Below, piece by piece: positions 35,899 to 51,628 of a stretch of DNA of 64,000 bases (position 1 is its first letter; every line of letters begins with the position of its first letter). The position numbers and the translations under genes were made by a program. The DNA is from Candidatus Latescibacterota bacterium (GTDB lineage Bacteria; Latescibacterota; UBA2968; UBA8231): positions 3,968,001-4,032,000 of the forward strand of contig CBDETK010000013.1 in NCBI GenBank assembly GCA_965242865.1, in the 5' to 3' direction. The notes below the pieces were generated by a model. That model was not told the origin of the DNA, did no database searches, and saw only the letters and a list, made by a program, of their open reading frames with translations.

Positions 35899-36471
35899 CT
35901 ACCTACGACCGTCCGCCGCAAGCGGTAATCGTCTGTCCGGTGATTCTTCTTTAGTGAACCTATTGAGTTCATCCGGGAACCATTCTACGAAAGCCTTCGC
36001 ATCAGAGTAGAGTTTGTATATTTCTTCGGAGGTTTTCTCAAGTGAGAAGCTGCCATAGTCGCCATGAACAAGACGATTTCTCTCACGACCAATTTCTAAG
36101 AATGCCTGTATAGATAGTTCTACGTCGTTATTCGTTTTCACCTTTTCCGTTATGTGATTCTTGAAGGAATCTCCAAATAGACTAAAAAACCTATTGGCAT
36201 TCTTCTTCTCCCAATCAAACCATGTGTGGTACTGGCGACTCACTGCTTTGTTTTGCACAAGCCACTTTATAGGATGATCTTTTCCAGTAACCTGTTCCAC
36301 AAAATTGACCACTACCTCCGTCATAGACCGTTCAAAATAGCTCGCGGCAGCTACCAACAATACTTTCCTGAAGTTTTCATCTGCAACACTGCGCCATGAA
36401 ATTTCGCCTGACTTGTACAAGAAGGTCAATATATCAGAGAAATCCTTGTATAAGCCATCAATAACACTCAT
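35899..36471 (-). CDS. HEPN-domain protein (predicted RNase)
   Basis: 'LLVAAASYFE' helix and RxxxxH motif 'RNRLVH'; low GC; start overlaps the DUF262 stop. Confidence 0.78.
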   Translation of the reverse strand: MSVIDGLYKDFSDILTFLYKSGEISWRSVADENFRKVLLVAAASYFERSMTEVVVNFVEQVTGKDHPIKWLVQNKAVSRQYHTWFDWEKKNANRFFSLFGDSFKNHITEKVKTNNDVELSIQAFLEIGRERNRLVHGDYGSFSLEKTSEEIYKLYSDAKAFVEWFPDELNRFTKEESPDRRLPLAADGRR

Positions 36472-37643
36472 CAGAATTCGGCTCCCCCCACAAGTTCTCG
36501 TGCCCTATTCAGTCTCTTATGTACATTTGAGGTGGCCGTAGTGCCTACTCGGCTCGCTTCAGCGAACTCCTTGTCTTTTTCGAGTGCTTGCAGGTGCTCT
36601 ATGTCTATTTCACCAGCGACGACGCGTCGTTCTGCAAATGCCTTCTCACAGACAACCGTAAAAACTGACTCATAGAGCGCAACGTTAAACCGATTGTTTA
36701 TCTTATTTTTGAAAGCAATGTCCGGCAAATTGGAGCATGCCTCTAGGAAAGACTCAAAAAGTTTCCGGCAGTACACATTCTGCTCTGGACGTTGATCTTT
36801 ACATTTTCTAGAAAACTGGTTCAAGAATTTGGCCAGAGAAGGCGCGTAATTATCGCCATCGACAAGTGTGGCAAACCCACGAAGAAGAAATTCAATGTCC
36901 CTCATATGTAAATCAGGTATGGATTGTCCCAAAATTCTCCGCCACTTCGGCAGATTATTAATATCGTACAGTACATTGTAGAAATCCGAGTGATACATAC
37001 TAGTGCGAATTTCTTGTGGACTCAGGGTTATACCGCCCGTATTGAGTCGGTTAAATATCTCATATATTGAGGAGTCGTCGGAGGGCGTATTCTGTTTGAC
37101 GACAATATTTCTTATTGGTCGTAAATCGAACTGGGTCTTGTAGTCACCAAGCGTCGCGTAGTTCAGACCCTTAAACATATTTGGATGATTGGGAATTTTT
37201 TCAGGCAGCCGGAGGTTGAAAGGCTGAAAATAGCTAGCGTCGTGCAGTATTTCTTCTGGAATATATCCCTCTTTATCGAATATAGAGCGAAGTTTTACTC
37301 GCGTTTCTTTCCGCGGGAATCGCTTCTTGATAAAATAGTAAATCGACATCAGGCGCTGTTGGCCATCTATGACGAGAAACTTGTTATGATCCTGTTCGTA
37401 AAGGAACAGTTGTGGTACTGGTAGGCCGAGTATGAGGGATTCGATCAATTTAGAGGCACGCCCTAAATCCCAGACGAAGTTGCGCTGAAAGCCGGGAATG
37501 CGTACCGCACCAGATTCCACGAAGCTGTGCAATGTCATTACATTGAAATCGTTGGGAGATACGGTAATGTCGTACTCCTCGACTTGTACCTCGTCCGCGT
37601 CTTCTGCGTAATCATCAAACCAAGATTGTCCGTTTTCGTCCAT
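36471..37643 (-). CDS. DUF262 (ParB/GmrS-like) protein
   Basis: 'IPGFQRNFVW...ASKLIESL.LGLPVP', 'VIDGQQRL', 'IFNRLNTGG..LS.QEIR'. Confidence 0.9.
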   Translation of the reverse strand: MDENGQSWFDDYAEDADEVQVEEYDITVSPNDFNVMTLHSFVESGAVRIPGFQRNFVWDLGRASKLIESLILGLPVPQLFLYEQDHNKFLVIDGQQRLMSIYYFIKKRFPRKETRVKLRSIFDKEGYIPEEILHDASYFQPFNLRLPEKIPNHPNMFKGLNYATLGDYKTQFDLRPIRNIVVKQNTPSDDSSIYEIFNRLNTGGITLSPQEIRTSMYHSDFYNVLYDINNLPKWRRILGQSIPDLHMRDIEFLLRGFATLVDGDNYAPSLAKFLNQFSRKCKDQRPEQNVYCRKLFESFLEACSNLPDIAFKNKINNRFNVALYESVFTVVCEKAFAERRVVAGEIDIEHLQALEKDKEFAEASRVGTTATSNVHKRLNRARELVGGAEF

Positions 37644-40293: not shown

Positions 40294-41277
40294 ATGATCA
40301 ACTACATCATCCGCCGCGTCCTGATTATGATCCCCACGCTGCTGGCCGTGTCGGTGCTGGTCTTTGTCGTCATCCAGTTGCCGCCCGGGGACATCATCAC
40401 GTCGCGCCTGCAAGAGTTGCAGGCCGAGGGCCAAGACATCTCCGAGGAACAAATCGCCGCCTTGCGCGCCCGCTACCATCTCGACGACCCGCTGTTCATC
40501 CAATACTGCAAGTGGATGGGCGGCTTCCTACAGGGCGATATGGGCTATTCGGTGATGTATGGCCAGTCGGTCAACAACCTGATCTGGGAGCGGCTTGGCT
40601 ACACCTTGCTGATCACCTCGACCGCTACCTTGCTGACTTGGCTGGTGGCCTTCCCGGTGGGCGTCTATTCGGCCCTGCGCCAGTACTCAGCGCTCGACTA
40701 CACGGCCACGCTCGCGGCCTTCGTCGGCTTGGCCACGCCCAACTTCCTGCTCGCGCTGGTTTTGATGTACTTGGGATACGAGTGGTTTGGGATCGCCGTG
40801 GGCGGGTTGTTTTCGCCCGAGTACGCGAGTGCGCCGTGGAGCTTGGCCAAGCTCGCGGACTTGCTCGGGCACCTGTGGATCCCGGCCGTGGTCATCGGCA
40901 CGGCCGGCATGGCCGGGCTGATGCGGATCATGCGGGCCAACCTCCTCGACGAGCTGGGCAAGCCTTACGTGACGACCGCGCTGGCCAAGGGCTTGGGGCC
41001 GGTCCGCTTGGTGATTAAGTACCCGTTGCGCATTGCCATCAATCCCTTTATCAGCACCGTCGGCTGGATGCTGCCGCACCTGATCTCGGGCTCGGCTATC
41101 ACCAGCGTGGTGTTGAGCCTGCCGACGACCGGCCCCTTGCTGCTCGAATCCCTCCGCAACCAAGACATGTATTTGGCCGGCAGCTTCCTCCTCGTGCTCA
41201 GCGTCCTGACGGTCATCGGCACCTTGCTGTCGGACATTCTCTTGGCCATTGCCGACCCGCGCATCCGCTATGAGTGA
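40294..41277 (+). CDS. ABC transporter permease (DppB/OppB-like)
   Basis: 'YIIRR', 'LPPGD', 'GD.GYS', EAA-like 'YVTTALAKGL', 'DPRIRY'. Confidence 0.92.
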   Translation: MINYIIRRVLIMIPTLLAVSVLVFVVIQLPPGDIITSRLQELQAEGQDISEEQIAALRARYHLDDPLFIQYCKWMGGFLQGDMGYSVMYGQSVNNLIWERLGYTLLITSTATLLTWLVAFPVGVYSALRQYSALDYTATLAAFVGLATPNFLLALVLMYLGYEWFGIAVGGLFSPEYASAPWSLAKLADLLGHLWIPAVVIGTAGMAGLMRIMRANLLDELGKPYVTTALAKGLGPVRLVIKYPLRIAINPFISTVGWMLPHLISGSAITSVVLSLPTTGPLLLESLRNQDMYLAGSFLLVLSVLTVIGTLLSDILLAIADPRIRYE

Positions 41278-42376
41278 CGATCGCCCGGCCGCCCAACTGG
41301 CCGACGCCTCGCAGTGGCGGCTGATGTGGATGCGCTTCCGCCGCCATCGGCTGGCCCTAGCCGGTAGTGCGGCCCTGCTCGCACTCTACGGCCTCGCAGC
41401 CCTGTGCGAATTTATCTCGCCGTACCGGCCCGACCAGCGCCACGCCCAGTACGTCCTCTGCCCGCCGCAGTCGATCCGCTTCTTCGACGGCGAGGGGCGC
41501 TTTCACTGGCGTCCCTTTGTCCACGGCGTGCGGCGAGATACGACCGCCGGCCCGTGGCAGCGCGAGTACCGCGTCAACGCCGAGGCCGTGTATCCAATCC
41601 GCTTTTTTGTGCGCGGCCCGGCCTACGAGTTTTGGGGGCTTTTCAACGCGGACTTGCACTTGTTCGGCGCGGGTAGCGGGCCGTTGTTCCTCTTTGGCAC
41701 CGACGACTTGGGCCGCGATCTCTTCAGCCGAATCATACATGGGGCGCGCATTTCGCTCACCATTGGGCTGATCGGCGTGGCCTTGACCTTTCTCATCGGC
41801 ATCCTGCTGGGGGGGGTGGCTGGTTATTACAGCGGCTGGGTCGATGTGGTGGTGCAGCGCATGATCGAGGTCCTGATGGCCGTGCCGCAACTGCCCCTGT
41901 GGATGGCCTTGAGCGCGGCCCTGCCAGCGCATTGGCCGCCGCTGCGGATTTACTTTGGCGTCACCATCATTCTCTCGCTGATGGGCTGGACCGGGTTGGC
42001 GCGGGTGGTGCGCGGCCGCTTTCTGTCGTTGCGCGACGAGGATTTTGTGGTTGCCGCCCGCCTATCGGGCACCAGCGAGTTGAAAATCATTTTCAAGCAC
42101 CTGTTGCCGTCGTTCCTCAGCCACGTGATCACGTCGGCCACCCTAGCGGTGCCGGGCATGATACTCGGCGAGACCGCGCTGAGTTTTTTGGGGATTGGGT
42201 TGCGGGCTCCGGTAGTTAGCTGGGGCGTGCTGCTGCAAAAGGCGCAGAACTTTCAGGCCGTGGCCATGGCGCCGTGGCTGTTGTTGCCCGGGCTTTTCGT
42301 GGTCGTCGCGGTCTTGGCCTTCAACGTGGTCGGCGATGGGATGCGCGACGCGGCCGATCCTTACGCTAGCCGATAG
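41270..42376 (+). CDS. ABC transporter permease (DppC/OppC-like)
   Basis: 'FGTDDLGRD.FSR...GARISL', 'DFV.AAR..G', 'HLLP', 'LSFLG.G', 'GDGMRDA.DP'. Confidence 0.92.
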   Translation: MSDDRPAAQLADASQWRLMWMRFRRHRLALAGSAALLALYGLAALCEFISPYRPDQRHAQYVLCPPQSIRFFDGEGRFHWRPFVHGVRRDTTAGPWQREYRVNAEAVYPIRFFVRGPAYEFWGLFNADLHLFGAGSGPLFLFGTDDLGRDLFSRIIHGARISLTIGLIGVALTFLIGILLGGVAGYYSGWVDVVVQRMIEVLMAVPQLPLWMALSAALPAHWPPLRIYFGVTIILSLMGWTGLARVVRGRFLSLRDEDFVVAARLSGTSELKIIFKHLLPSFLSHVITSATLAVPGMILGETALSFLGIGLRAPVVSWGVLLQKAQNFQAVAMAPWLLLPGLFVVVAVLAFNVVGDGMRDAADPYASR

Positions 42377-42415: not shown

Positions 42416-45400
42416 ATGCCGCGGATTTTCGACAACATTGAACAATCGCTCCGTCCAGCCCTAGCGGAAACCATGGGAGTTGCCGACCGGGCAGACTTCT
42501 GCGTGGGCTACTTCAACCTCCGCGGCTGGCGATCCATTGACGAATACGTCGAAAAATGGGATGGTGGAGACGGTCATTGCTGCCGTCTGCTGGTCGGCAT
42601 GCAGCGGCTGCCCCATGAAGAGCTTCGCATTGCGAGAAGTCTCTCGGCAAATGAAGAGTCGCTAGACAACCAGACGGCGTTGCAATTGAAGCGCAAGCTG
42701 GCGGAAGAGTTTCGAGAGCAACTGACGATTGGCGCACCCAACAACGCGGACGAGGCGGGCCTTCGCAGACTAGCGCGGCAGCTTGAAGCAAAGAAGGTCG
42801 TGGTCAAGCTGTTCCTCAAACACCTGCTTCACGCCACGCTCTACTTGTTGTTCCGCCCGGATCCGATCAATCCGACCGTCGGATATTTGGGCAGCAGCAA
42901 TCTCACGCAAGCGGGACTAGCTGGTCAGGGTGAACTCAACGTCGATGTGCTAGAGCACGACGCCTGTCAGAAGCTCGCTAAATGGTTTGAGGAACGGTGG
43001 AATGACCGTTGGTGCGTCGATATATCGAAAGAGCTGAGCGAAATCATCAATGAGAGTTGGGCGCGAGAGGAACCAATCCCGCCGTACCATATCTACGTTA
43101 AGATAGCCTACCATCTATCACAGGAAGCACGGGCTGGCCTAACCGAGTTTCGCATTCCCACAGACTTCGGCAACAAACTGCTCGACTTTCAGATGGCTGC
43201 GGTAAAAATCGCGGCCCATCTCCTGAACAAACGCGGCGGCGTCATTATCGGCGATGTTGTCGGGCTGGGTAAGACGCTCATGGCAACGGCTCTAGCGCGG
43301 GTATTTGAAGACGATTACGGGCTTGAGACCTTAATCATTTGCCCGAAGAATCTCGTTCCAATGTGGGAGGATTATCGCGAGCAGTACCGCATGCAGGCTC
43401 GCGTACTGTCGATCAGCCGCGTGATTAAAGAATTGCCCAACATGCGCCGTTACCGGCTGGTACTCATCGACGAGAGCCACAATCTGAGAAACCGCGAAGG
43501 CAAGAGATACCGCGCTATCCAAGAATACATCACGGAAAATGACAGCAAGTGCATCCTGCTGTCGGCGACCCCATACAACAAGACTTACCTAGATTTATCT
43601 AGCCAGCTTCGCCTATTTGTAGCCGATGATGCAGATCTCGGCGTTCGCCCGGAACGCTTGCTTAGGCAGATGGGTGAGACCGAGTTCGTGCGCCAGCACC
43701 AAGCCCCGGTTCGGTCCTTGGCAGCATTTGAAAAATCTGAATACGCCGCCGACTGGCGGGAGCTAATGCGCCTGTATCTCGTACGTCGGACTCGCAGCTT
43801 CATCCAAGACAACTATGCTGCCACAGATGAGAACAATGGGCGAAAGTATCTGACCTTTGAAGACGGTACGCGCTCCTATTTTCCAGCACGAGTCCCAAGG
43901 ACGCTTAGGTTTGATATAGATGAGCAATACGCCCGGCTGTTCGCGGACAACGTCGTTGAGGCCATAAACGGCTTGGAACTCCCGCGCTACGGTCTGGGCA
44001 ATTATGTCAAATCATCGCCGCCTACGCCTCCCACCGATACCGAAACAAAAATTCTAGACGACTTATCGCGTGCTGGTAAGCGCCTGATGGGCTTTTGCCG
44101 AACCAACCTGTTTAAGCGTCTGGAGAGCAGCGGTCATGCCTTTCTGCTGTCGGTCGAACGACACGTTCTCAGGAACTTCATTTTTCTTCACGCCATTGAT
44201 AATGACCTGCCGCTCCCCATCGGAACGATCGATGCCGGACTCTTGGATACGCAATCCTTCGACAGAGATGCTGATGAGGACGTCGGCGACTTCTTCGATG
44301 CGGAAGAGGAGGCCGATAGTGAAGGGCCCGGCGGAGCAATCGCGCTGAGGACCGAGGCCGGTTTCCGCCAGCGAGCCGCCGAGGTATATGCGCTCTATAC
44401 CAACCGCTACAAGAAGCGATTTCGCTGGTTGTCGCCACGCTACTTCGCCGCGGACCTCGGCCGTGCCCTAAAGGCCGACGCCAAGACGCTTCTCGACCTC
44501 CTAGCCCAATTCGGCGAGTGGTACGCGGCCAAGGACGCCAAGCTGGACGCGCTGGAAGAGTTGCTGAGGGCTGAACATGCGGACTGCAAAGTCTTGGTCT
44601 TTACCCAATTCGCCGACACGGTGCATTACCTAGAAAGCGAGTTGAAGGGACGCGGAGTGTCGAGCGTGACCGCTGTGACCGGGAATACGCCGGACGTGAC
44701 AAAACTCGCTTGGCGCTTCAGCCCAAGGAGCAACGAGAAAGACAGCTTTGGCCAAGAGGAACTACGCATACTGATTGCGACCGACGTGCTCAGCGAAGGG
44801 CAGAACCTGCAAGACTGCGCTGTCGTGGTGAACTACGACTTGCCGTGGGCCATTATCCGGCTGATTCAGCGAGCTGGCCGTGTTGACCGCATCGGCCAAC
44901 AGGCCGCCGAAATCCTGTGCTATTCCTTTCTCCCGGCTGATGGAATCGAACGCCTGATCGGGCTGCGGGAGCGCGTGCGGGTGCGCCTCAACCAGAACGC
45001 CGAAGTAGTAGGAACGGACGAGGCATTCTTTGAAGATGAAGACCAACAGGCCGTACTCGACCTCTACAACGAGAAGGCCGGTATTCTCGATGGCGACGAC
45101 GATACAGAAGTTGATCTCTCATCCTACGCCTACCAAATCTGGAAAAACGCAACCGATGCCGACCCATCGCTCAAAAAGAAGATTGAGGACTTGCCATCTG
45201 TAGTGTATTCCTCGAAAGCCTACCATGAACGGCTAGAGCAACCGGAAGGGGCTCTCGTTTATATGCGTACCACACAGGGGAACGATGCGTTGGCTTGGCT
45301 TGACCGCGATGGTAGCAGCGTTACCGAGAGTCAATTCGAGATTCTGCGGACGGCCGAGTGCTCGCCCGACACGCCGGCCTTACCGCGTCGCGACACCCAT

Positions 45401-45778
45401 CACGATCTGGTCAGTAAGGCCGCAGAGCACATTGCCCGCGAGGAAAAACAGGTCGGCGGCCAACTGGGGCGACCGTCTGGAGCTCGGTTCCGCACTTACG
45501 AACGCCTCAAGAACCATGCCGAACAGGTAGAAGGCACCCTGTTCGATACAGGACCTCTACGTCGGGCAATTGACGACATCTATCGCTATCCCTTGCGCCA
45601 AGCTGCGCTGGATACCCTGAACCGGCAGTTGCGTAGCGGGATTGCCGATGAGGCACTGGCCGAATTGGTCATCACGCTCAGGGACGAGGACCGACTCTGC
45701 ATCGTCCACAAAGAAGATGAACGCCAAGAACCAAGCATTATCTGCTCGCTGGGCCTTATTAAACAGGACAGGATCTAA
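42416..45778 (+). CDS. PLD-domain + SF2 (SNF2-like) helicase of an RM/DISARM-related system; PLD HxK motif altered to HxT
   Basis: 'VGYF', 'LHATLY', 'GSSNLT.AGL...ELN', 'GDVVGLGKT', 'IDESHN.RN', 'LSATP', 'TDVLSEGQNLQ', 'QRAGRVDRIG'. Confidence 0.85.
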   Translation: MPRIFDNIEQSLRPALAETMGVADRADFCVGYFNLRGWRSIDEYVEKWDGGDGHCCRLLVGMQRLPHEELRIARSLSANEESLDNQTALQLKRKLAEEFREQLTIGAPNNADEAGLRRLARQLEAKKVVVKLFLKHLLHATLYLLFRPDPINPTVGYLGSSNLTQAGLAGQGELNVDVLEHDACQKLAKWFEERWNDRWCVDISKELSEIINESWAREEPIPPYHIYVKIAYHLSQEARAGLTEFRIPTDFGNKLLDFQMAAVKIAAHLLNKRGGVIIGDVVGLGKTLMATALARVFEDDYGLETLIICPKNLVPMWEDYREQYRMQARVLSISRVIKELPNMRRYRLVLIDESHNLRNREGKRYRAIQEYITENDSKCILLSATPYNKTYLDLSSQLRLFVADDADLGVRPERLLRQMGETEFVRQHQAPVRSLAAFEKSEYAADWRELMRLYLVRRTRSFIQDNYAATDENNGRKYLTFEDGTRSYFPARVPRTLRFDIDEQYARLFADNVVEAINGLELPRYGLGNYVKSSPPTPPTDTETKILDDLSRAGKRLMGFCRTNLFKRLESSGHAFLLSVERHVLRNFIFLHAIDNDLPLPIGTIDAGLLDTQSFDRDADEDVGDFFDAEEEADSEGPGGAIALRTEAGFRQRAAEVYALYTNRYKKRFRWLSPRYFAADLGRALKADAKTLLDLLAQFGEWYAAKDAKLDALEELLRAEHADCKVLVFTQFADTVHYLESELKGRGVSSVTAVTGNTPDVTKLAWRFSPRSNEKDSFGQEELRILIATDVLSEGQNLQDCAVVVNYDLPWAIIRLIQRAGRVDRIGQQAAEILCYSFLPADGIERLIGLRERVRVRLNQNAEVVGTDEAFFEDEDQQAVLDLYNEKAGILDGDDDTEVDLSSYAYQIWKNATDADPSLKKKIEDLPSVVYSSKAYHERLEQPEGALVYMRTTQGNDALAWLDRDGSSVTESQFEILRTAECSPDTPALPRRDTHHDLVSKAAEHIAREEKQVGGQLGRPSGARFRTYERLKNHAEQVEGTLFDTGPLRRAIDDIYRYPLRQAALDTLNRQLRSGIADEALAELVITLRDEDRLCIVHKEDERQEPSIICSLGLIKQDRI

Positions 45779-45915
45779 AGTAATTACTCAGTACTTTGTA
45801 GCGATCCATTGGGCATATTTTGTCAAATACGCTATTCATAAGTTAATTTGTTGCGGATGCGGTCCATACCCGCCTCTAAAGGCTAAAAACGAACAGTTAA
45901 TCCGGGACATTCCCA

Positions 45916-48900
45916 ATGCCCACACACCTCGACCATAAGAAAATCAGAGAATATCTAGCGAATTTCGATCTCCAATCCTTGTTTATTGAGGAGCTCGGTT
46001 GGGACCGTGGCGGCGAGAATCTGGAAGTCCCCGTCGCTAATACGAGATATGCTCTCAAACCCATTGCCCATAAGCGCGGCTTGGTGGCCTACCAGTACGT
46101 CGCTAACGCGGACGACGTCCTCCCCGATCATCCCACTCGCCAGAAGATCGAAAGAGCTGTCGCCAAAATTGTTCGCGAGCACATCATCGTGTACGCCTCG
46201 CCCGACCGGAGTACGCACTATTGGCAATGGGTGAAGCGCGAACCCGGCCAGCCTGACCGCTCGCGCTCGCATCTTTACCAAAAGGGGCAGGCGGGAGAAG
46301 CACTGATTCAGAAGTTGGAGCGGATCGTCTTCACGCTGGACGAGGAAGACGATCTGACCATCGTCGATGTGTCGGGGCGGGTGCGGGCGGCCTTCGATGT
46401 TGAGAAGGTCACAAAGAGGTTCTACGACCGCTTCAAGAAGGAACACCTCGCTTTCCTCAGCTTCATCGAAGGAATCGAGAACGTAGCCGATCGCGAGTGG
46501 TACGCCTCGTTGATGCTCAACCGGATGATGTTCATCTACTTTTTTCAGAAACGGGGCTTTCTCGATGGCGACGCGGACTATCTACAAAACCGCCTACAAA
46601 AAGTGCAGCAACAGCAGGGTAACGGAAACTTCTACGGCTTCTACCGGCTATTCCTGTTGCGGCTGTTTCACGAGGGGCTGGGACAGCCGGAGGCTGACCG
46701 CACCCCCGAATTGGCGGCCTTGCTCGGGGAGGTTCCGTATCTCAACGGCGGCCTCTTTGAAGTCCATGACCTAGAACGCGACAACCAAAACATCCACATC
46801 CCGGATGAGGCGTTCCAGAAAATTTTCGATTTCTTCGACGCCTACCAGTGGCATCTCGACGACCGGCCGCTTCGCAACGACAACGAGATCAACCCGGATG
46901 TCCTCGGTTACATCTTTGAGAAATACATCAACCAGAAGCAGATGGGGGCCTACTATACCAAGGAGGACATTACCGGGTATATCAGCCGCAACACCATCAT
47001 TCCCTTCCTGTTCGACCGGGCGAAGAAAGAGTGCTCCATCGCCTTCAAGCCCGGTGGCGGAGTGTGGCGGCTATTGGCGGACGACCCAGACCGATATTTT
47101 TACGAGGCGGTTCGCCACGGTATTACCTATGACATCCATAAAGGGAAGCCCCTTGCGGACAAGCGCGAGTTGCCGCCTGCGATAGCTGTTGGCCTGAACG
47201 ACGTGTCCAAACGCGAAACTTGGAACAAAGCGGCCCCGCCCGACTATGCTCTGCCGACCGAGACTTGGCGCGAGCACGTCGCCCGCCGCCAACGCTATGA
47301 AGAAGTCTATGCCAAGCTGGCCGCGGGCGAAGTCGCGTCAATCAACGACCTCATCACGTATAATCTGGACATCGAGAAATTCGCTCAAGACGCAATCGCG
47401 GGAAGCGAGGGGCCTGAACTCATTCGCGCCTTTTGGAAGGCGATTACTCAGGTCTCTATCCTCGATCCCACCTGCGGTTCCGGTGCCTTCTTGTTTGCCG
47501 CGCTCAACATCTTGGAGCCGATATACACGGCCTGCCTAGAGGCCATGCAGGGGTTCCTCGACGATCTGAAGCGTTCGACGCGCAAGCACCATCCTGAGAA
47601 AATGAGTGATTTCCGCAAGGTGCTGAAACAGGTCGCTAAACACGCTAGCGAACCGTATTTCACCCTCAAGTCCATCATCGTCAATAACCTGTACGGCGTG
47701 GACATTATGGAAGAGGCCGTGGAGATCTGCAAACTGCGTTTATTTTTGAAGTTGGTCGCGCAGTTGGAGAGTTACGAGCAGATCGAGCCGCTGCCCGACG
47801 TCGACTTCAACATTCGTGCCGGTAACACCCTCGTCGGCTTCACTTCGTTTGAAGAAGTAGAAAACGCGCTGAGTTTTGATCTGAGAAAACTGCCGGAACT
47901 CCCAAAGATCAAGGAACGCGCCGAAATTGCCGACCACGCCTTCCGTAAGTTCCGCGAAATGCAGACCGAACACGACATGGAAGCAGGCAAGTTTGCCGGC
48001 GCGAAAGCTGAATTGCGGAGGCGATTGAACGACCTGCGGGACGAACTGGATCAGTATTTGGCGGGTGATTACGGCGTCAAAGTGGATGACAAAAAGGGTT
48101 ACGCTACATGGCGTGACAGCCACCAGCCGTTTCACTGGTTCGTCGAGTTTTATGGGATTATGGACGACGGAGGGTTCGACGTGATTGTTGGGAATCCGCC
48201 GTATCTGGAAATACGGGAGGTTCCTTACTCAACGCGGCATTTTGCCTGTGAGGAAAGTGGTGCCATTCACGCGATGTGTACTGAACGTAGCCTCGCCCTA
48301 TCTGGGAAGAGTGGATGCATAAGTATGATAGTGCCCCTAGCCTTAGTGTCTACTCAACGCATGACTATCTTGCAGGCCATGCTGGAGAAGGACCACGATT
48401 GCTGGTACTCGAACTTTTCTTGGAGGCCTAGAAAGCTGTTTGATACAGTGAATCGCGCTTTGACCATTTTCGTGATCACAAAGCCGCAAAATAAAAAAGA
48501 CACCTATTCCACAGCTTATCTCAAATGGAACTCTGATAATAGAGGTTATTTGACTTCAACTATAAGATATGCAGAGTGTCCAAGAGGTCGAAGATCATTT
48601 TGGGCACCCAAACTTGGAGAGAGTATCGAGAACTCGATACTACAAAAATGCATCTCAATTCACACAACAATGGGGACTTTTGTTGGGCGATCTAGGAACC
48701 TTGTATATTATCGCACAACGGGCGGCCTCTATTGGAAAGTTTTTACAAATTTTGCTCCAACATTCTGTGTCAACGGAGTAGTGGGAAAGTCGTCACGAGA
48801 AACGAGTTTTTCACTTGCGAACAAAGCACATGTTAAATCTGCTGTATCAATTCTAAGCAGTGACGTATTTTGGTGGTGGTACACAGTAACATCTAACTTG

Positions 48901-49335
48901 AGAGACCTTAATCCTTCTGATTGGAGGCATTTCCCCGTACCTGAATCCGCAATGAATGATTCCAAAGTACAGCGATTGGGAATAGAATATATTGCAGACT
49001 TACAAAGGAATAGCACTATTCTCATTCGTAACCAACGAAGTACTGGCGTGACAGAAACACAATCTTTCAAAGTTCAGAAATCCAAGCCTATCATTGAAGA
49101 AATAGACAAAATTCTTGCTGCACACTACGGCTTAACTGACGAAGAACTGGACTTCATCATCAACTACGACATCAAGTATCGCATGGGACTAAAAGCCTCT
49201 TTTGAAGCAAATACAAATACCAATGGCCTCCTCGAACTAGCGGCAAAGGTCTATGAGGGACTCTCCGATGCTGACTTGGACGATATGGAAGAAATCATTC
49301 ATGACCGTCGCAACTTTTTCGGAGATAGAACCTAA
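45916..49335 (+). CDS. Large N6-adenine methyltransferase (Eco57I/type IIG-like) with a C-terminal antitoxin-like extension
   Basis: 'VPYLNGGLF', 'LGYIFE', 'GAYYT', 'LDPTCGSGAF', 'LYGVDI', 'GFDVIVGNPPY', then a TRD, then 'FIINYDIKYRMG' and ~48 further residues. Confidence 0.88.
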   Translation: MPTHLDHKKIREYLANFDLQSLFIEELGWDRGGENLEVPVANTRYALKPIAHKRGLVAYQYVANADDVLPDHPTRQKIERAVAKIVREHIIVYASPDRSTHYWQWVKREPGQPDRSRSHLYQKGQAGEALIQKLERIVFTLDEEDDLTIVDVSGRVRAAFDVEKVTKRFYDRFKKEHLAFLSFIEGIENVADREWYASLMLNRMMFIYFFQKRGFLDGDADYLQNRLQKVQQQQGNGNFYGFYRLFLLRLFHEGLGQPEADRTPELAALLGEVPYLNGGLFEVHDLERDNQNIHIPDEAFQKIFDFFDAYQWHLDDRPLRNDNEINPDVLGYIFEKYINQKQMGAYYTKEDITGYISRNTIIPFLFDRAKKECSIAFKPGGGVWRLLADDPDRYFYEAVRHGITYDIHKGKPLADKRELPPAIAVGLNDVSKRETWNKAAPPDYALPTETWREHVARRQRYEEVYAKLAAGEVASINDLITYNLDIEKFAQDAIAGSEGPELIRAFWKAITQVSILDPTCGSGAFLFAALNILEPIYTACLEAMQGFLDDLKRSTRKHHPEKMSDFRKVLKQVAKHASEPYFTLKSIIVNNLYGVDIMEEAVEICKLRLFLKLVAQLESYEQIEPLPDVDFNIRAGNTLVGFTSFEEVENALSFDLRKLPELPKIKERAEIADHAFRKFREMQTEHDMEAGKFAGAKAELRRRLNDLRDELDQYLAGDYGVKVDDKKGYATWRDSHQPFHWFVEFYGIMDDGGFDVIVGNPPYLEIREVPYSTRHFACEESGAIHAMCTERSLALSGKSGCISMIVPLALVSTQRMTILQAMLEKDHDCWYSNFSWRPRKLFDTVNRALTIFVITKPQNKKDTYSTAYLKWNSDNRGYLTSTIRYAECPRGRRSFWAPKLGESIENSILQKCISIHTTMGTFVGRSRNLVYYRTTGGLYWKVFTNFAPTFCVNGVVGKSSRETSFSLANKAHVKSAVSILSSDVFWWWYTVTSNLRDLNPSDWRHFPVPESAMNDSKVQRLGIEYIADLQRNSTILIRNQRSTGVTETQSFKVQKSKPIIEEIDKILAAHYGLTDEELDFIINYDIKYRMGLKASFEANTNTNGLLELAAKVYEGLSDADLDDMEEIIHDRRNFFGDRT

Positions 49336-49337
49336 TA

Positions 49338-49751
49338 ATGGCCCGACAAAGCGTGGTATTGGACACGGATATTCTCTCCGCAATTATGCGCCAAAATCCT
49401 GCGGTCATATCTACAGCTCAAGCCTATCTCAGAGAGCACCACCAATTCCACTTTTCCATCATTACACAGTACGAGATTCTACGTGGTCTAAAAGTAAAGG
49501 AGGCGACTCAACAGATAGCAACTTTTGAGAATTTCTGTTCGCAGAATACCATCCTCCCTCTGAGTGAAGAAGTAATCTCAAAAGCCGCTGAAATATATGC
49601 AGATCTGCGAAAACGAGGAGAACCGGTTGGGGATGCAGATATTTTGATTGCAGCTACAGCAATAGTGAACAAATTCGGGATCGCCACCAACAATGAGAAC
49701 CATTTTCAAAGAATCTCCGGGCTTCATGTAGAGAACTGGTTAAAGGTTTGA
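49338..49751 (+). CDS. VapC-family PIN-domain toxin
   Basis: 'VLDTDILS', 'IT.YEI.RG', 'DADILIAATA', 'TNN..HF.RI.GL.VENW'; GGAG RBS inside the MTase tail. Confidence 0.9.
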   Translation: MARQSVVLDTDILSAIMRQNPAVISTAQAYLREHHQFHFSIITQYEILRGLKVKEATQQIATFENFCSQNTILPLSEEVISKAAEIYADLRKRGEPVGDADILIAATAIVNKFGIATNNENHFQRISGLHVENWLKV

Positions 49752-49772
49752 AGCTGTCTGATGAAATCAGCA

Positions 49773-49890
49773 ATACAATTTGTCTTAGTAGCCATTCGCC
49801 GCACTAGATGCTTAAAGACACAGGGCCACAAGAGGCACAAAAGACACAAAGATACAATCTGTCTTAGCAGCCATCGCCACACTAGACGCT
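49773..49890. repeat. Pair of ~40-bp imperfect direct repeats with a 39-bp A/C-rich spacer
   Basis: ATACAATTTGTCTTAGTAGCCATTCGCCGCACTAGATGCT (49773-49812) vs ATACAATCTGTCTTAGCAGCCATCGCCACACTAGACGCT (49852-49890). Confidence 0.8.
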
Positions 49891-50532
49891 ATGAATTCTG
49901 AGAACCGAATTCTTTTAAGACCCGATAATTCTTGCTATCCGACGGCGTTGCGGCGTTGTTCCGATGCTGGGCGTCTGCGAACGGTCACAGCACAAGGCGA
50001 CCTCGGCATCCTTGACAGGACCCGAATAGGCTTCTTCTGTTCTGTGCGCTGTCCGGGCGACGCAATCCTCAAGACCTACGATCTTGCGCGGATGCTGCGC
50101 CAAACTGACGTGACGATTGTCGGCGGTTTCCAGTCGCCGATGGAGAAGGAGTGTCTAGACCTGCTGTTGCGCGGCTCGGCGTCCGTGGTGGTCTGTCCGG
50201 CGCGGGGGCTTGGCCGGATGCGGGTTCCGAAAAGCTGGAAGGAGCCGCTGGCTGAGGGACGTTTGCTGATTCTGTCCTTTTTTGACGACGGCATTCGCCG
50301 CCCCACCGCCGATCTCGCAGTCAAGCGCAACGCCCATATCGCCGCGCTCGCCGACCGCATCCTTATTGCCCACGCCGAAAAGGGCGGAAAAACCGAGGCA
50401 TTGTGCAAGGAAGCACTCGCCCACGGAAAGTTAGTGTTTGCCATAGACTCGCCAGATAACGCACACCTCGTAGAACTCGGCGTTGTGCCGGTCCATGTCG
50501 AAGACTTCACATCTTTGGTTGTGGGGAAGTGA
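49891..50532 (+). CDS. DprA/Smf-like (SLOG) protein
   Basis: 'YP..L', 'GFFCSVRCPG', 'GGFQSPMEKECL..LLRG', 'RN...AALAD...IAHA..GG.T'. Confidence 0.78.
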   Translation: MNSENRILLRPDNSCYPTALRRCSDAGRLRTVTAQGDLGILDRTRIGFFCSVRCPGDAILKTYDLARMLRQTDVTIVGGFQSPMEKECLDLLLRGSASVVVCPARGLGRMRVPKSWKEPLAEGRLLILSFFDDGIRRPTADLAVKRNAHIAALADRILIAHAEKGGKTEALCKEALAHGKLVFAIDSPDNAHLVELGVVPVHVEDFTSLVVGK

Positions 50533-50581
50533 ATGCGATACTTGGCGTAGTCCCAGCCTTAACCCTATTTAGGAGGGAGCC

Positions 50582-51177
50582 ATGTTGCCGATAGTTGACA
50601 TATTCTCGAAACGCCAGAAGAGACTTCAGGGGAAGGTTCCTGAAGTCTATGTTTATGACAACTTGCCCGAGCCTCTCAGGTCGGCTATCAATTCGCCAAC
50701 GGGCAGATTATCCGCATCGACTCTGAGTTCACTCATGATGAAATTGTTAAGCCTGCGCTCAAGCTGCTCAATCAACAGCAGTATGCTGGAGCACAACAGG
50801 AGTTCTTAAAAGCTCATGAACACTATCGCAAGGGAAACGCTAAAGAAGCTCTCAGCGAGTGTCTAAAAGCATTTGAAAGCGTAATGAGAGCGATTTGTGA
50901 TAAGCGAGGCTGGAGTTACAGCAATAATGCAACAGCAAAATCCTTGATCCAAGCTTGTTTCGATAACGGGCTAATTCCATCGTTTTGGCAATCGCACTAT
51001 TCGTCCCTGAGAAATCTTTTGGAGAGTAGTGTACCTACCGGACGCAACAAGCTGAGCGGGCATGGTCAAGGCACAACTCCGGTCTCCGTGCCAAGTCACC
51101 TTGTCGCGTACATGTTGCACATGACGGCATCGGCTATTGTGTTTCTGACGGAAGCTGATATGAAAGGAAAATCGTGA
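50582..51177 (+). pseudogene. AbiJ-like (STM4504/CBY_0614-type) HEPN abortive-infection gene with internal deletion and frameshift near 50680
   Basis: N-terminal 'DIFSKRQK...PEVYVYD.LP.PLR' jumps out of frame to 'VGYQF.NG.IIRIDSEF.H.E.VKPAL...GAQ.EFLKAHEHYR.G...RNKLSGHGQG'. Confidence 0.75.
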
Positions 51178-51244
51178 AACTGCATGTCAATAAGAATTCC
51201 GACGCGCTCTACCCTCTTCGGAATTCAAAACCGCTTAGCCGCTT

Positions 51245-51628
51245 ATGACCTCTCCCCTCCTTGACGTCCACGACCTGAGCGTCCGTATCACCCGCGACGA
51301 GGGCGTGGTGCGGCCGCTCAACGGCGTCAGCTTCCGCATCAACGCCGGCCAAGCCGTGGGCATCGTCGGCGAAAGCGGGTGCGGCAAGACCACGACGTCC
51401 AACGCCCTGCTGCAAATTTTGCCGCCGGCCGCCGAGATTACCAGCGACCACATCCGCTACCGACGCAAGCTGGCGCAAGCTGGACGAGCGCGAGATCGAC
51501 CTCGCTGCGCTCGCCGCGCATAGCGACGAGATGCACCAGATCCGCGTCGGCGACATTTCCATGATATCGCCGACGAGCCGACTACGGCCCTCAACGTGAC
51601 CGTGCAGGCGCGGGTGCTCAAGCTGATG
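51245..51628 (+). pseudogene. Degraded DppD/OppD ABC ATPase of the upstream transporter operon
   Basis: 'GIVGESGCGKT', 10-bp tandem duplication CGCAAGCTGG x2 (51464-51483) shifting frame, 'ISMI' joined directly to 'ADEPTTALNVTVQA.VL.LM', then truncation. Confidence 0.85.

Follow-up and report, generated by a model that had tools for sequence, protein, structure and literature searches.

The DNA analysed here (the window) is a 64,000-nt stretch of the genome of a Candidatus Latescibacterota bacterium. It carries a gene for an Eco57I/IIG-type DNA methyltransferase (MTase) that reads past the usual end of its family into a 48-residue tail resembling part of an antitoxin, and directly behind it an intact gene for a PIN-domain toxin, VapC. 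The features of the locus are the following.

42416..45778, plus strand: PLD(HKD)-nuclease and SNF2 helicase, 1120 aa (Pfam PLDc_2, SNF2-rel_dom and Helicase_C; PADLOC 'HKD+Snf2' C3a139, E 3.1e-48)
45916..49335, plus strand: MTase open reading frame (ORF), 1139 aa, Eco57I/IIG-type (ORF listing)
45916..49188, plus strand: MTase body, residues 1-1091, with an N-terminal region, a gamma-class N6-adenine MTase domain (DPTCGSGAF, GNPPY), a target-recognition domain and a conserved C-terminal helix running to YDIKYRMG
49189..49335, plus strand: fused tail, residues 1092-1139 and the stop codon, composed of the linker LKASFEANTNTNG and a module of the antitoxin C-terminal type
49228..49326, plus strand: conserved module core LLELAAKVYEGLSDADLDDMEEIIHDRRNFFGD, residues 1105-1137, predicted to contact VapC (alignment A1, ratio of nonsynonymous to synonymous substitution rates (dN/dS), complex-model interface)
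49321..49324, plus strand: GGAG, possible ribosome-binding site of vapC within the tail coding sequence, 13 nt before the ATG (read from the sequence)
49338..49751, plus strand: VapC, PIN-domain toxin, 137 aa (PF01850, E 4.2e-13)

The C-terminus of the 1139-aa ORF reads ...ELDFIINYDIKYRMG and then LKASFEANTNTNGLLELAAKVYEGLSDADLDDMEEIIHDRRNFFGDRT, the latter encoded by nt 49189-49332 and forming the 48 residues past YRMG. The stop codon TAA (49333-49335) is followed by the dinucleotide TA and then by the vapC start codon ATG at 49338, and this 2-nt stop-to-start spacing fits a putative translational coupling of tail and vapC. Both the GGAG and the 2-nt layout are also present in two other genomes of the genus, G130 and G125. 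An earlier reading of the window made without database searches (the sequence-only reading) had reported that the MTase reads past YRMG into a tail at 49189-49335, that an intact PIN gene begins 2 nt after the MTase stop with a ribosome-binding site inside the tail, and that a separate antitoxin ORF is absent. All three observations were confirmed at these positions, and the third agrees with the inspection of the ORFs and with the finding that the module occurs in a single copy in the genome (search to E<=10; assembly 93.6% complete). No other antitoxin-like ORF was seen among the same-strand ORFs of at least 30 aa overlapping or adjoining the tail and vapC, which were just an out-of-frame ORF at 49253-49528 and a 46-aa ORF at 49761-49901. 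The out-of-frame ORF (91 aa) was considered as a gene and rejected; comparable out-of-frame ORFs lie over the same stretch in related loci because the tail and VapC sequences are conserved. The MTase gene has a GC content of about 56% over its first two-thirds (5' side), decreasing to 42-46% over 48000-49800, which fits a replaced 3' part of the gene.

In Pfam the body of the MTase matches Eco57I methylase (PF07669, E 1.3e-21) and also MmeI_Mtase, and the residues P518, T519, G521, S522, G523, A524 and F525 as well as N760, P761 and P762 are invariant across 60 MTase sequences. The PADLOC profile PDLC03628 (REase_MTase_IIG, 1100 positions) matches protein residues 5-1092 at profile positions 3-1096 with 1069 bits, and given that the match ends at residue 1092, the family ends one residue after ...NYDIKYRMG. 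When the C-terminal 140 residues of the MTase were used as query, 3033 matches were obtained at E<=1e-3, and of the 120 best homologues 108 end 0-19 residues after YRMG and 12 bear the tail, in agreement with the statement of the earlier reading that YDIKYRMG usually lies near the C-terminus of this family. The protein is thus like the members of REase_MTase_IIG (~1090-aa enzymes paired with an HKD-SNF2 helicase) in matching the profile over its full length, and unlike them in that the usual members stop 0-19 residues after YRMG whereas the tailed group adds a 48-residue antitoxin-like module. A second, untailed MTase paralogue is present in the same genome (G000:C13:5255916-5259194, 54% identity, query residues 6-1086).

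The tail by itself matched no Pfam and no NCBIfam family at E<=0.1. As the sole query against a database of 5.8 billion sequences it retrieved 78-aa PF01954 proteins (P0003-P0005) with 57-69% identity and E-values from 3.3e-8 to 1.6e-5, and in the standalone relative P0003 the PF01954 match extends over residues 1-64. The likeness to DUF104/AF2212 antitoxins, which had been proposed in the sequence-only reading, was therefore recovered when the tail was searched separately. An alignment of 17 modules (A1) had a mean column identity of 59% with L18, G25 and R41 invariant, and the A1 profile gave 425 matches at E<=1e-3 among 1.84 billion representatives, the best 150 of which were all 31-189 aa long and mostly carried the module at or near the C-terminus. 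The same profile gave nothing below E 0.25 against PDB sequences, the tail gave two weak, unrelated-looking loci only among metagenome contigs, and tblastn of the junction and tail against plasmids gave no match.

To these matches the antitoxins of related toxins can be added, and a scan of genome contigs with VapC yielded three loci as a source of cognate antitoxins. Upstream of VapC orthologues with 63-71% identity in other phyla and families, the preceding gene encodes an antitoxin ending in the same module. At L001, L002, L022 and L024 (L001 being cut by a contig end) these are AF2212-type antitoxins of 85-87 aa of the form MKQ..AVYENGVF.PL...VR..VE... followed by ..LLELAAKVYEGLS...IDEIEKIA.DRR.FFG, and at L021 (1489-1878, minus strand) and L025 (1228-1620) they are DUF433-type antitoxins of 129-130 aa with the same C-terminal module. 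The module is common to two types of antitoxin N-terminal domain (AF2212 and DUF433) and to the MTase. The first ~35-40 residues of the standalone antitoxins, that is the AF2212-type domain, have no counterpart in the window, and the tail is preceded by the C-terminal helix of the MTase instead. Because of the homology of the module to the antitoxins preceding VapC orthologues, the tail is the linker and the C-terminal half of an antitoxin of this VapC subfamily, and its derivation from the toxin-binding half of an AF2212-type antitoxin is well supported by these comparisons. In PMC2701414, COG2880 and COG2442 are listed as predicted antitoxins associated with PIN domains, and the N-terminal domain of the PIN-associated AF2212 type is described as AbrB-like and probably DNA-binding.

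The best NCBIfam matches of the toxin were VapC models, tRNA(fMet)-specific ones among the nearest, all below the cut-offs, and the tRNA(fMet)-specific VapC chains 9H6A and 3TND of the PDB matched it at E 1.7e-11. Among eight members of the VapC family 56 columns are invariant, including D9, E46, D99, D101 and E120, and all are kept in the window. In the alignment to the Shigella-type VapC 9H6A, residues D9, E46 and D101 are paired with acidic residues. We take D9, E46, D99/D101 and E120 to be the conserved acidic active-site residues of the PIN toxin.

The spatial relation of the two partners was examined by structure prediction. In an AlphaFold2 model of the whole MTase (60-row alignment; predicted template modelling score 0.79, mean predicted local distance difference test (pLDDT) 80), residues 1086-1139 had pLDDT 29-47 and the tail formed two unpacked helices (1104-1114 and 1118-1135), so that it is predicted to be a free, low-confidence appendage beside a confident body. 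When VapC and the tail were modelled as a complex, the tail was placed over the acidic pocket of VapC with a score of 0.74, as compared to 0.00 for the best of three controls. Of 80 solved complexes 58 attained the mark used for this score, as did 2 of 110 mismatched pairs; these counts are only rough because own alignments were used. The runs agreed in at least 91% of contacts with a partner pLDDT of at least 70, and the predicted interface involves VapC residues 10-11, 46-47 and 98-101 and residues 11-45 of the 49-aa tail chain; the tail is thus predicted to bind over the acidic active-site pocket. VapBC complexes of related VapC proteins have been solved, and part of this outcome may reflect likeness to them.

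The junction is not an assembly artefact because it recurs in independent assemblies and is bridged by contigs of sequencing runs. A contig of run X4 (49153-49897) bridges both the YRMG/tail junction (34 nt on the left) and the tail/VapC junction; it shows 21 differences and, at 49774, a gap of 3 nt. A contig of run X5 (49211-49541) bridges tail/VapC. In run X3 the contigs 48600-49175 and 49166-49900, both free of errors, share just 10 nt, and this run has no bridge over the YRMG/tail junction. Contigs break within the conserved stretch 49122-49187, and many records match only there and then diverge, representing other MTase genes. The DNA homology to untailed MTase genes stops right after the RMG codons.

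Over the 33 codons of the tail core, dN/dS was 0.039/0.367 in comparison with G130 and 0.039/0.446 in comparison with G125 (ratios of about 0.1), with 9-10 nucleotide differences in 99 nt. Judged from these substitution rates, the tail peptide is under purifying selection in the MTase frame. The values for the tails of two further genomes of the genus, G118 and G136 (0.08-0.39), were not separable from the others, 33 codons being too few for a test of relaxation.

The same MTase-tail junction was found in 12 protein cluster representatives, the window protein included. When longer tail-bearing proteins were searched for, the same 12 came back together with several gene fragments, P0280, and P0278/P0281/P0282. 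P0280 lacks the stop codon that would separate the tail from VapC, and its frame runs on into a truncated VapC. In P0278, P0281 and P0282 (185 aa, three 90%-identity clusters) about 145 residues of the N-terminus of a DUF772 transposase run in frame into the tail, with the junction '...TNGLL(E/K)LAAKVYEGLS...NFFGDR(T/A)'. The identities of the other 11 tailed MTases to the window protein differ strongly along the sequence.

Residues 1-250: 79-91% identity
Residues 251-500: 88-95% identity
Residues 501-830: 67-89% identity
Residues 831-1050 (target-recognition region): 21-32% identity in 10 of the 11, 75% in P0007
Tail: 84-94% identity

In a tree of residues 1-830 the 12 tailed MTases grouped as a single clade (support 1.0 in FastTree, 104 full-length sequences), and in a tree of residues 831-1050 they were scattered, with the recognition domain of the window nearest to that of the untailed P0008. 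The 104 sequences had been selected for their similarity to residues 1000-1139 and do not include the untailed orthologues of the genus (G141, G134, G102 and G136, 66-73% overall identity). The MTase and the tail have thus stayed in one frame while the target-recognition domain was exchanged several times.

The module was present in 21 of 168 genomes of the phylum sample (the genome of the window included) and in 4 of 30 other genomes of the genus, such that five species of the genus carry the fusion. Close VapC orthologues (67-100% identity) were found in 3 of 31 genomes of the genus, namely the window, G130 and G125, each time directly behind a tailed MTase, and the other VapC matches in the 31 genomes were paralogues of 27-35% identity elsewhere. 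The co-occurrence of the tail with a downstream PIN gene, a check suggested together with the sequence-only reading, therefore came out with close VapC genes only behind tailed MTases. By inspection of ORFs of at least 90 aa (tblastn was not run on these loci), no VapC-sized ORF was seen in four untailed syntenic loci (G141, G134, G102 and G139), and for G141, G134 and G139, all members of the genus, the whole genome yielded no close VapC. There is thus an asymmetry, in which close VapC occurs only behind the tail and the tail often occurs without VapC, as a toxin and its antidote predict. Given that the tail is frequently found without VapC, the toxin is readily lost and dispensable.

In the sister loci the syntenic order is helicase, MTase, variable slot and DprA/PsyrA-like gene, with the following contents.

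G130: tailed MTase and intact VapC (85% identity); AbiEi/AbiEii between helicase and MTase
G125: tailed MTase; only 81 aa of VapC are read before a stop 135 nt short of the contig end, and another contig begins with residues 78-137, so that the gene looks interrupted
G118: tailed MTase followed by a nucleotidyltransferase (MNT) and HEPN pair, no VapC; the tail has Cys at the nearly invariant Y23
G136: 1112-aa MTase whose 3' end differs, followed by a 72-aa remnant ORF (= P0001) keeping '...IDYAVKCRMG' and the tail; no VapC
G141: untailed MTase, then an MTaX1+HNH protein
G134: untailed MTase, cut by an insertion, ending YRIGRESGK
G102: untailed MTase, ending YRMGRESER
G139: truncated MTase; no tail found

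An AbiEi antitoxin and an AbiEii nucleotidyltransferase toxin are located between helicase and MTase in G130 (L034 183-1677) and also in G125 and G102, and the slot behind the untailed MTase of G141 holds a single 329-aa MTaX1 ('methylase-associated X1') + HNH protein (L028 4409-5398). The borders of the MTase gene are a hot spot for toxin-antitoxin (TA) cassettes. The HKD-SNF2 gene upstream, which has its full length, is the presumed restriction partner of the MTase. In the window it has H139-A-T141 at the HKD motif (codon ACG, 42836-42838) as compared to HAK in 6/6 orthologues examined (G141, G134, G136, G130, G125 and G118), a difference of a single base (AAG vs ACG). Residue 141 is presumably the catalytic lysine of the HKD restriction nuclease, and K141T may, judging from HKD nucleases in general, affect activity.

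We consider it probable that a co-translated VapC, whose antitoxin has lost its promoter and DNA-binding domain, has its only antidote in the C-terminal tail encoded by the MTase gene, and that expression of the MTase is hard to lose as a result. A VapBC cassette would once have been located directly behind the MTase gene, and a deletion or recombination would have removed the antitoxin promoter together with the N-terminal AF2212-type domain and fused what was left of the antitoxin, its linker and the toxin-binding module of its C-terminus, in frame with the MTase at the last conserved residue (…YRMG|L…). The sole antidote to VapC would now be made as a flexible 48-residue tail of a 1139-aa MTase, with vapC translated from the same mRNA from a start 2 nt after the MTase stop, and the tail would wrap over the acidic active-site pocket of VapC and keep the RNase silent. 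As long as vapC is intact, a cell could then not lose the expression or the frame of the 3' end of the MTase gene, and VapC would act as an addiction device for the modification gene. The layout of the locus, the antitoxin homology of the tail, the inheritance of the fusion across species and recognition-domain exchanges and the purifying selection are shown. Binding of the tail to VapC is predicted, and neutralisation, which is likely, as well as toxicity and addiction are inferred.

The proposal of the sequence-only reading that the MTase itself neutralises the toxin was upheld in part. The antitoxin-homologous tail, the lack of a separate antitoxin, the predicted docking and the co-occurrence speak for it; the expectation that the tail would be confined to homologues with vapC did not hold, the tail persisting without VapC in G118 (with MNT and HEPN) and in G136 (as a 72-aa remnant). 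This does not refute neutralisation because loss of the toxin after the fusion explains it. Several further points also weigh against the interpretation given above. VapC is interrupted in G125 and truncated in P0280, which indicates that the toxin is often lost, and the dN/dS of VapC between the window and G130 (0.074/0.136, about 0.55) may represent relaxed constraint. The conservation of the tail could partly reflect recent common descent, and the exclusive clade of tailed MTases may not hold once G141, G134, G102 and G136 are added. The presence of the tail behind a DUF772 transposase fragment suggests that the MTase is not a necessary carrier; if vapC follows P0278/P0281/P0282, what is needed is translation of the tail, whatever its carrier. 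Finally, the genomic context covers only four fused loci besides the window.

Three other explanations have to be weighed against these data. The fusion might be merely a shared frame, with a separate small antitoxin made from an internal start at the in-frame ATG of YRMG (49183-49185, 50-aa product) or released by proteolysis. The ATG lies one codon before the junction, short tail ORFs exist in nature (P0001, 72 aa) and the tail is also the in-frame end of unrelated ORFs. Intragenic antitoxins from internal starts are cited for Rpn proteins in PMC12707154. However, no Shine-Dalgarno-like motif is present in the 45 nt before this ATG, the stretch is near-identical in tailed and untailed genes, and the ATG codes for a Met that is conserved across the family (G134 has ATA). 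A scan for promoters and terminators over 48700-50000 remained at chance level (3 promoter-like sites vs 2.2 +/- 1.6 expected). An independently made antitoxin appears rather unlikely. That the fusion is instead an accident in a degrading island, with VapC inactive or unexpressed and the tails similar only from recent divergence, would agree with the AbiJ_NTD4/DUF7014 gene split in two ORFs (see below), the helicase K141T change, the 92-aa fragment of an ABC ATPase, the VapC dN/dS of about 0.55, and the loss or breakage of VapC in G125, G118, G136 and P0280. Against this, dN/dS in the tail core is about 0.1 with 9-10 differences in 99 nt, the frame has been kept through target-recognition swaps down to 21-32% identity, and all 56 family-invariant residues of VapC are intact in the window. 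The tail of G118, which lacks VapC, has the Cys at Y23 that relaxation would be expected to produce, and no such change is found in the window. Decay alone is for these reasons an unlikely account of the locus.

The third explanation, put forward in the sequence-only reading, extends the neutralising function of the tail to defence. A phage anti-restriction protein that binds, sequesters or destabilises the MTase or the restriction complex would cause the tail to release the RNase and the infection to be aborted, by analogy with PrrC/EcoprrI. A latent RNase is encoded inside a restriction-modification (RM) locus and is predicted to be held by the modification subunit, and the locus is rich in abortive-infection (Abi) and TA cassettes (AbiEi/AbiEii in G130 and G125, MNT and HEPN in G118, AbiJ-like and PsyrA-like genes downstream). 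PMC12839542 describes RNases of the PIN and HEPN types that accompany BREX methyltransferases as backup effectors. Set against this, T replaces the HKD lysine in the window (K in 6/6 orthologues), so that the guarded restriction arm may be inactive while tail and VapC are intact, the tail is also found on a transposase fragment, and VapC has been lost in 3 of 5 tailed loci of the genus, which is a better fit to an ordinary dispensable TA cassette than to an integrated defence layer. A guarding role is accordingly unlikely, and the provision of the antidote by the MTase gene remains the preferred interpretation.

Antitoxins are modular, and TA cassettes nest in RM operons. The arrangement in the window resembles type II VapBC systems, with AF2212-like (COG2880/DUF104/PF01954) or DUF433 (COG2442) antitoxins, in that the PIN toxin lies directly behind, and is apparently translationally coupled to, the gene bearing the module, and in that the module has its homologue in the C-terminal half of these antitoxins. 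It differs in that the N-terminal DNA-binding/dimerisation domain of the antitoxin and its own promoter are missing and the module is located on a 1139-aa MTase; the usual autoregulation at an operator by the TA complex is therefore not possible. With the AF2212-like family PF01954 the tail shares the C-terminal module only, and not the N-terminal beta-strand domain. Self-contained TA and Abi pairs in RM and BREX operons (AbiE, MNT-HEPN, PIN/HEPN) are similar in location, the sister loci carrying AbiEi/AbiEii, MNT+HEPN or MTaX1+HNH at the MTase borders, whereas here one partner has been merged into the MTase frame.

In PMC12707154, PrrC-EcoprrI is presented as an anticodon nuclease masked by a type IC RM enzyme, alongside RM guardians such as PARIS. 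The window shares with PrrC-EcoprrI and PARIS a latent RNase in an RM locus that is presumably held inactive by an RM subunit. It shows no homology to PrrC, as VapC matches PIN alone in Pfam and VapC models alone in NCBIfam, and masking here would occur through a covalently fused antitoxin peptide and not through a non-covalent complex of whole proteins. In full-text searches of the literature (subscription journals lay outside), no antitoxin module or toxin-neutralising peptide fused to a DNA methyltransferase was found.

The block of helicase, MTase, VapC, DprA-like and AbiJ-like genes (42416-51200) has a GC content of 42-58% as compared to ~61-64% in its flanks (41249-42376 and 51245-51523), and it is bordered by an oligopeptide-type ABC permease gene and by a 92-aa fragment resembling the N-terminus of an ABC ATPase. 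From this arrangement the island appears to have inserted into, and disrupted, a transporter operon. Between vapC and the DprA-like gene there is an imperfect direct repeat of ~38 nt (49775-49812 / 49853-49889; 87% identity over 52 aligned columns, one indel), which was missed by the repeat finder because of the indel. The DprA-like gene (49891-50532, 213 aa; PF02481, E 7e-9; PADLOC PsyrA, E 2.8e-15) is located behind the variable slot in all sister loci examined and may be part of the defence island. The ORFs 50582-50809 and 50884-51177 together correspond to one AbiJ_NTD4 and DUF7014 protein, which is intact (307 aa) in G102 (L030 385-1308, minus strand), and the split gene in the window is probably a pseudogene. 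A second, separate defence-like pair is located on the minus strand at 35899-37643, where a GmrSD_N (DUF262) gene adjoins a RiboL-PSP HEPN gene, with one base shared by the two ORFs, in a patch of 43-44% GC.

If the tail neutralises VapC, the locus would be a natural case of an enzyme held hostage by a toxin, in which neither the expression nor the frame of the modification gene can be lost. It would also tie an RNase physically to an RM subunit and hence constitute a candidate guardian of defence; should the guard reading be true, an RNase carried on the modification subunit would be freed once this subunit is disabled, degraded or sequestered by a phage or its synthesis is stopped, leading to abortive infection. 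The sister loci form a natural series with intact VapC, broken VapC, VapC replaced and the tail on a transposase fragment. The 48-residue peptide would, given neutralisation, provide a handle on what constitutes a minimal antitoxin and on how an antitoxin turns over when it is tied to a large, stable protein.

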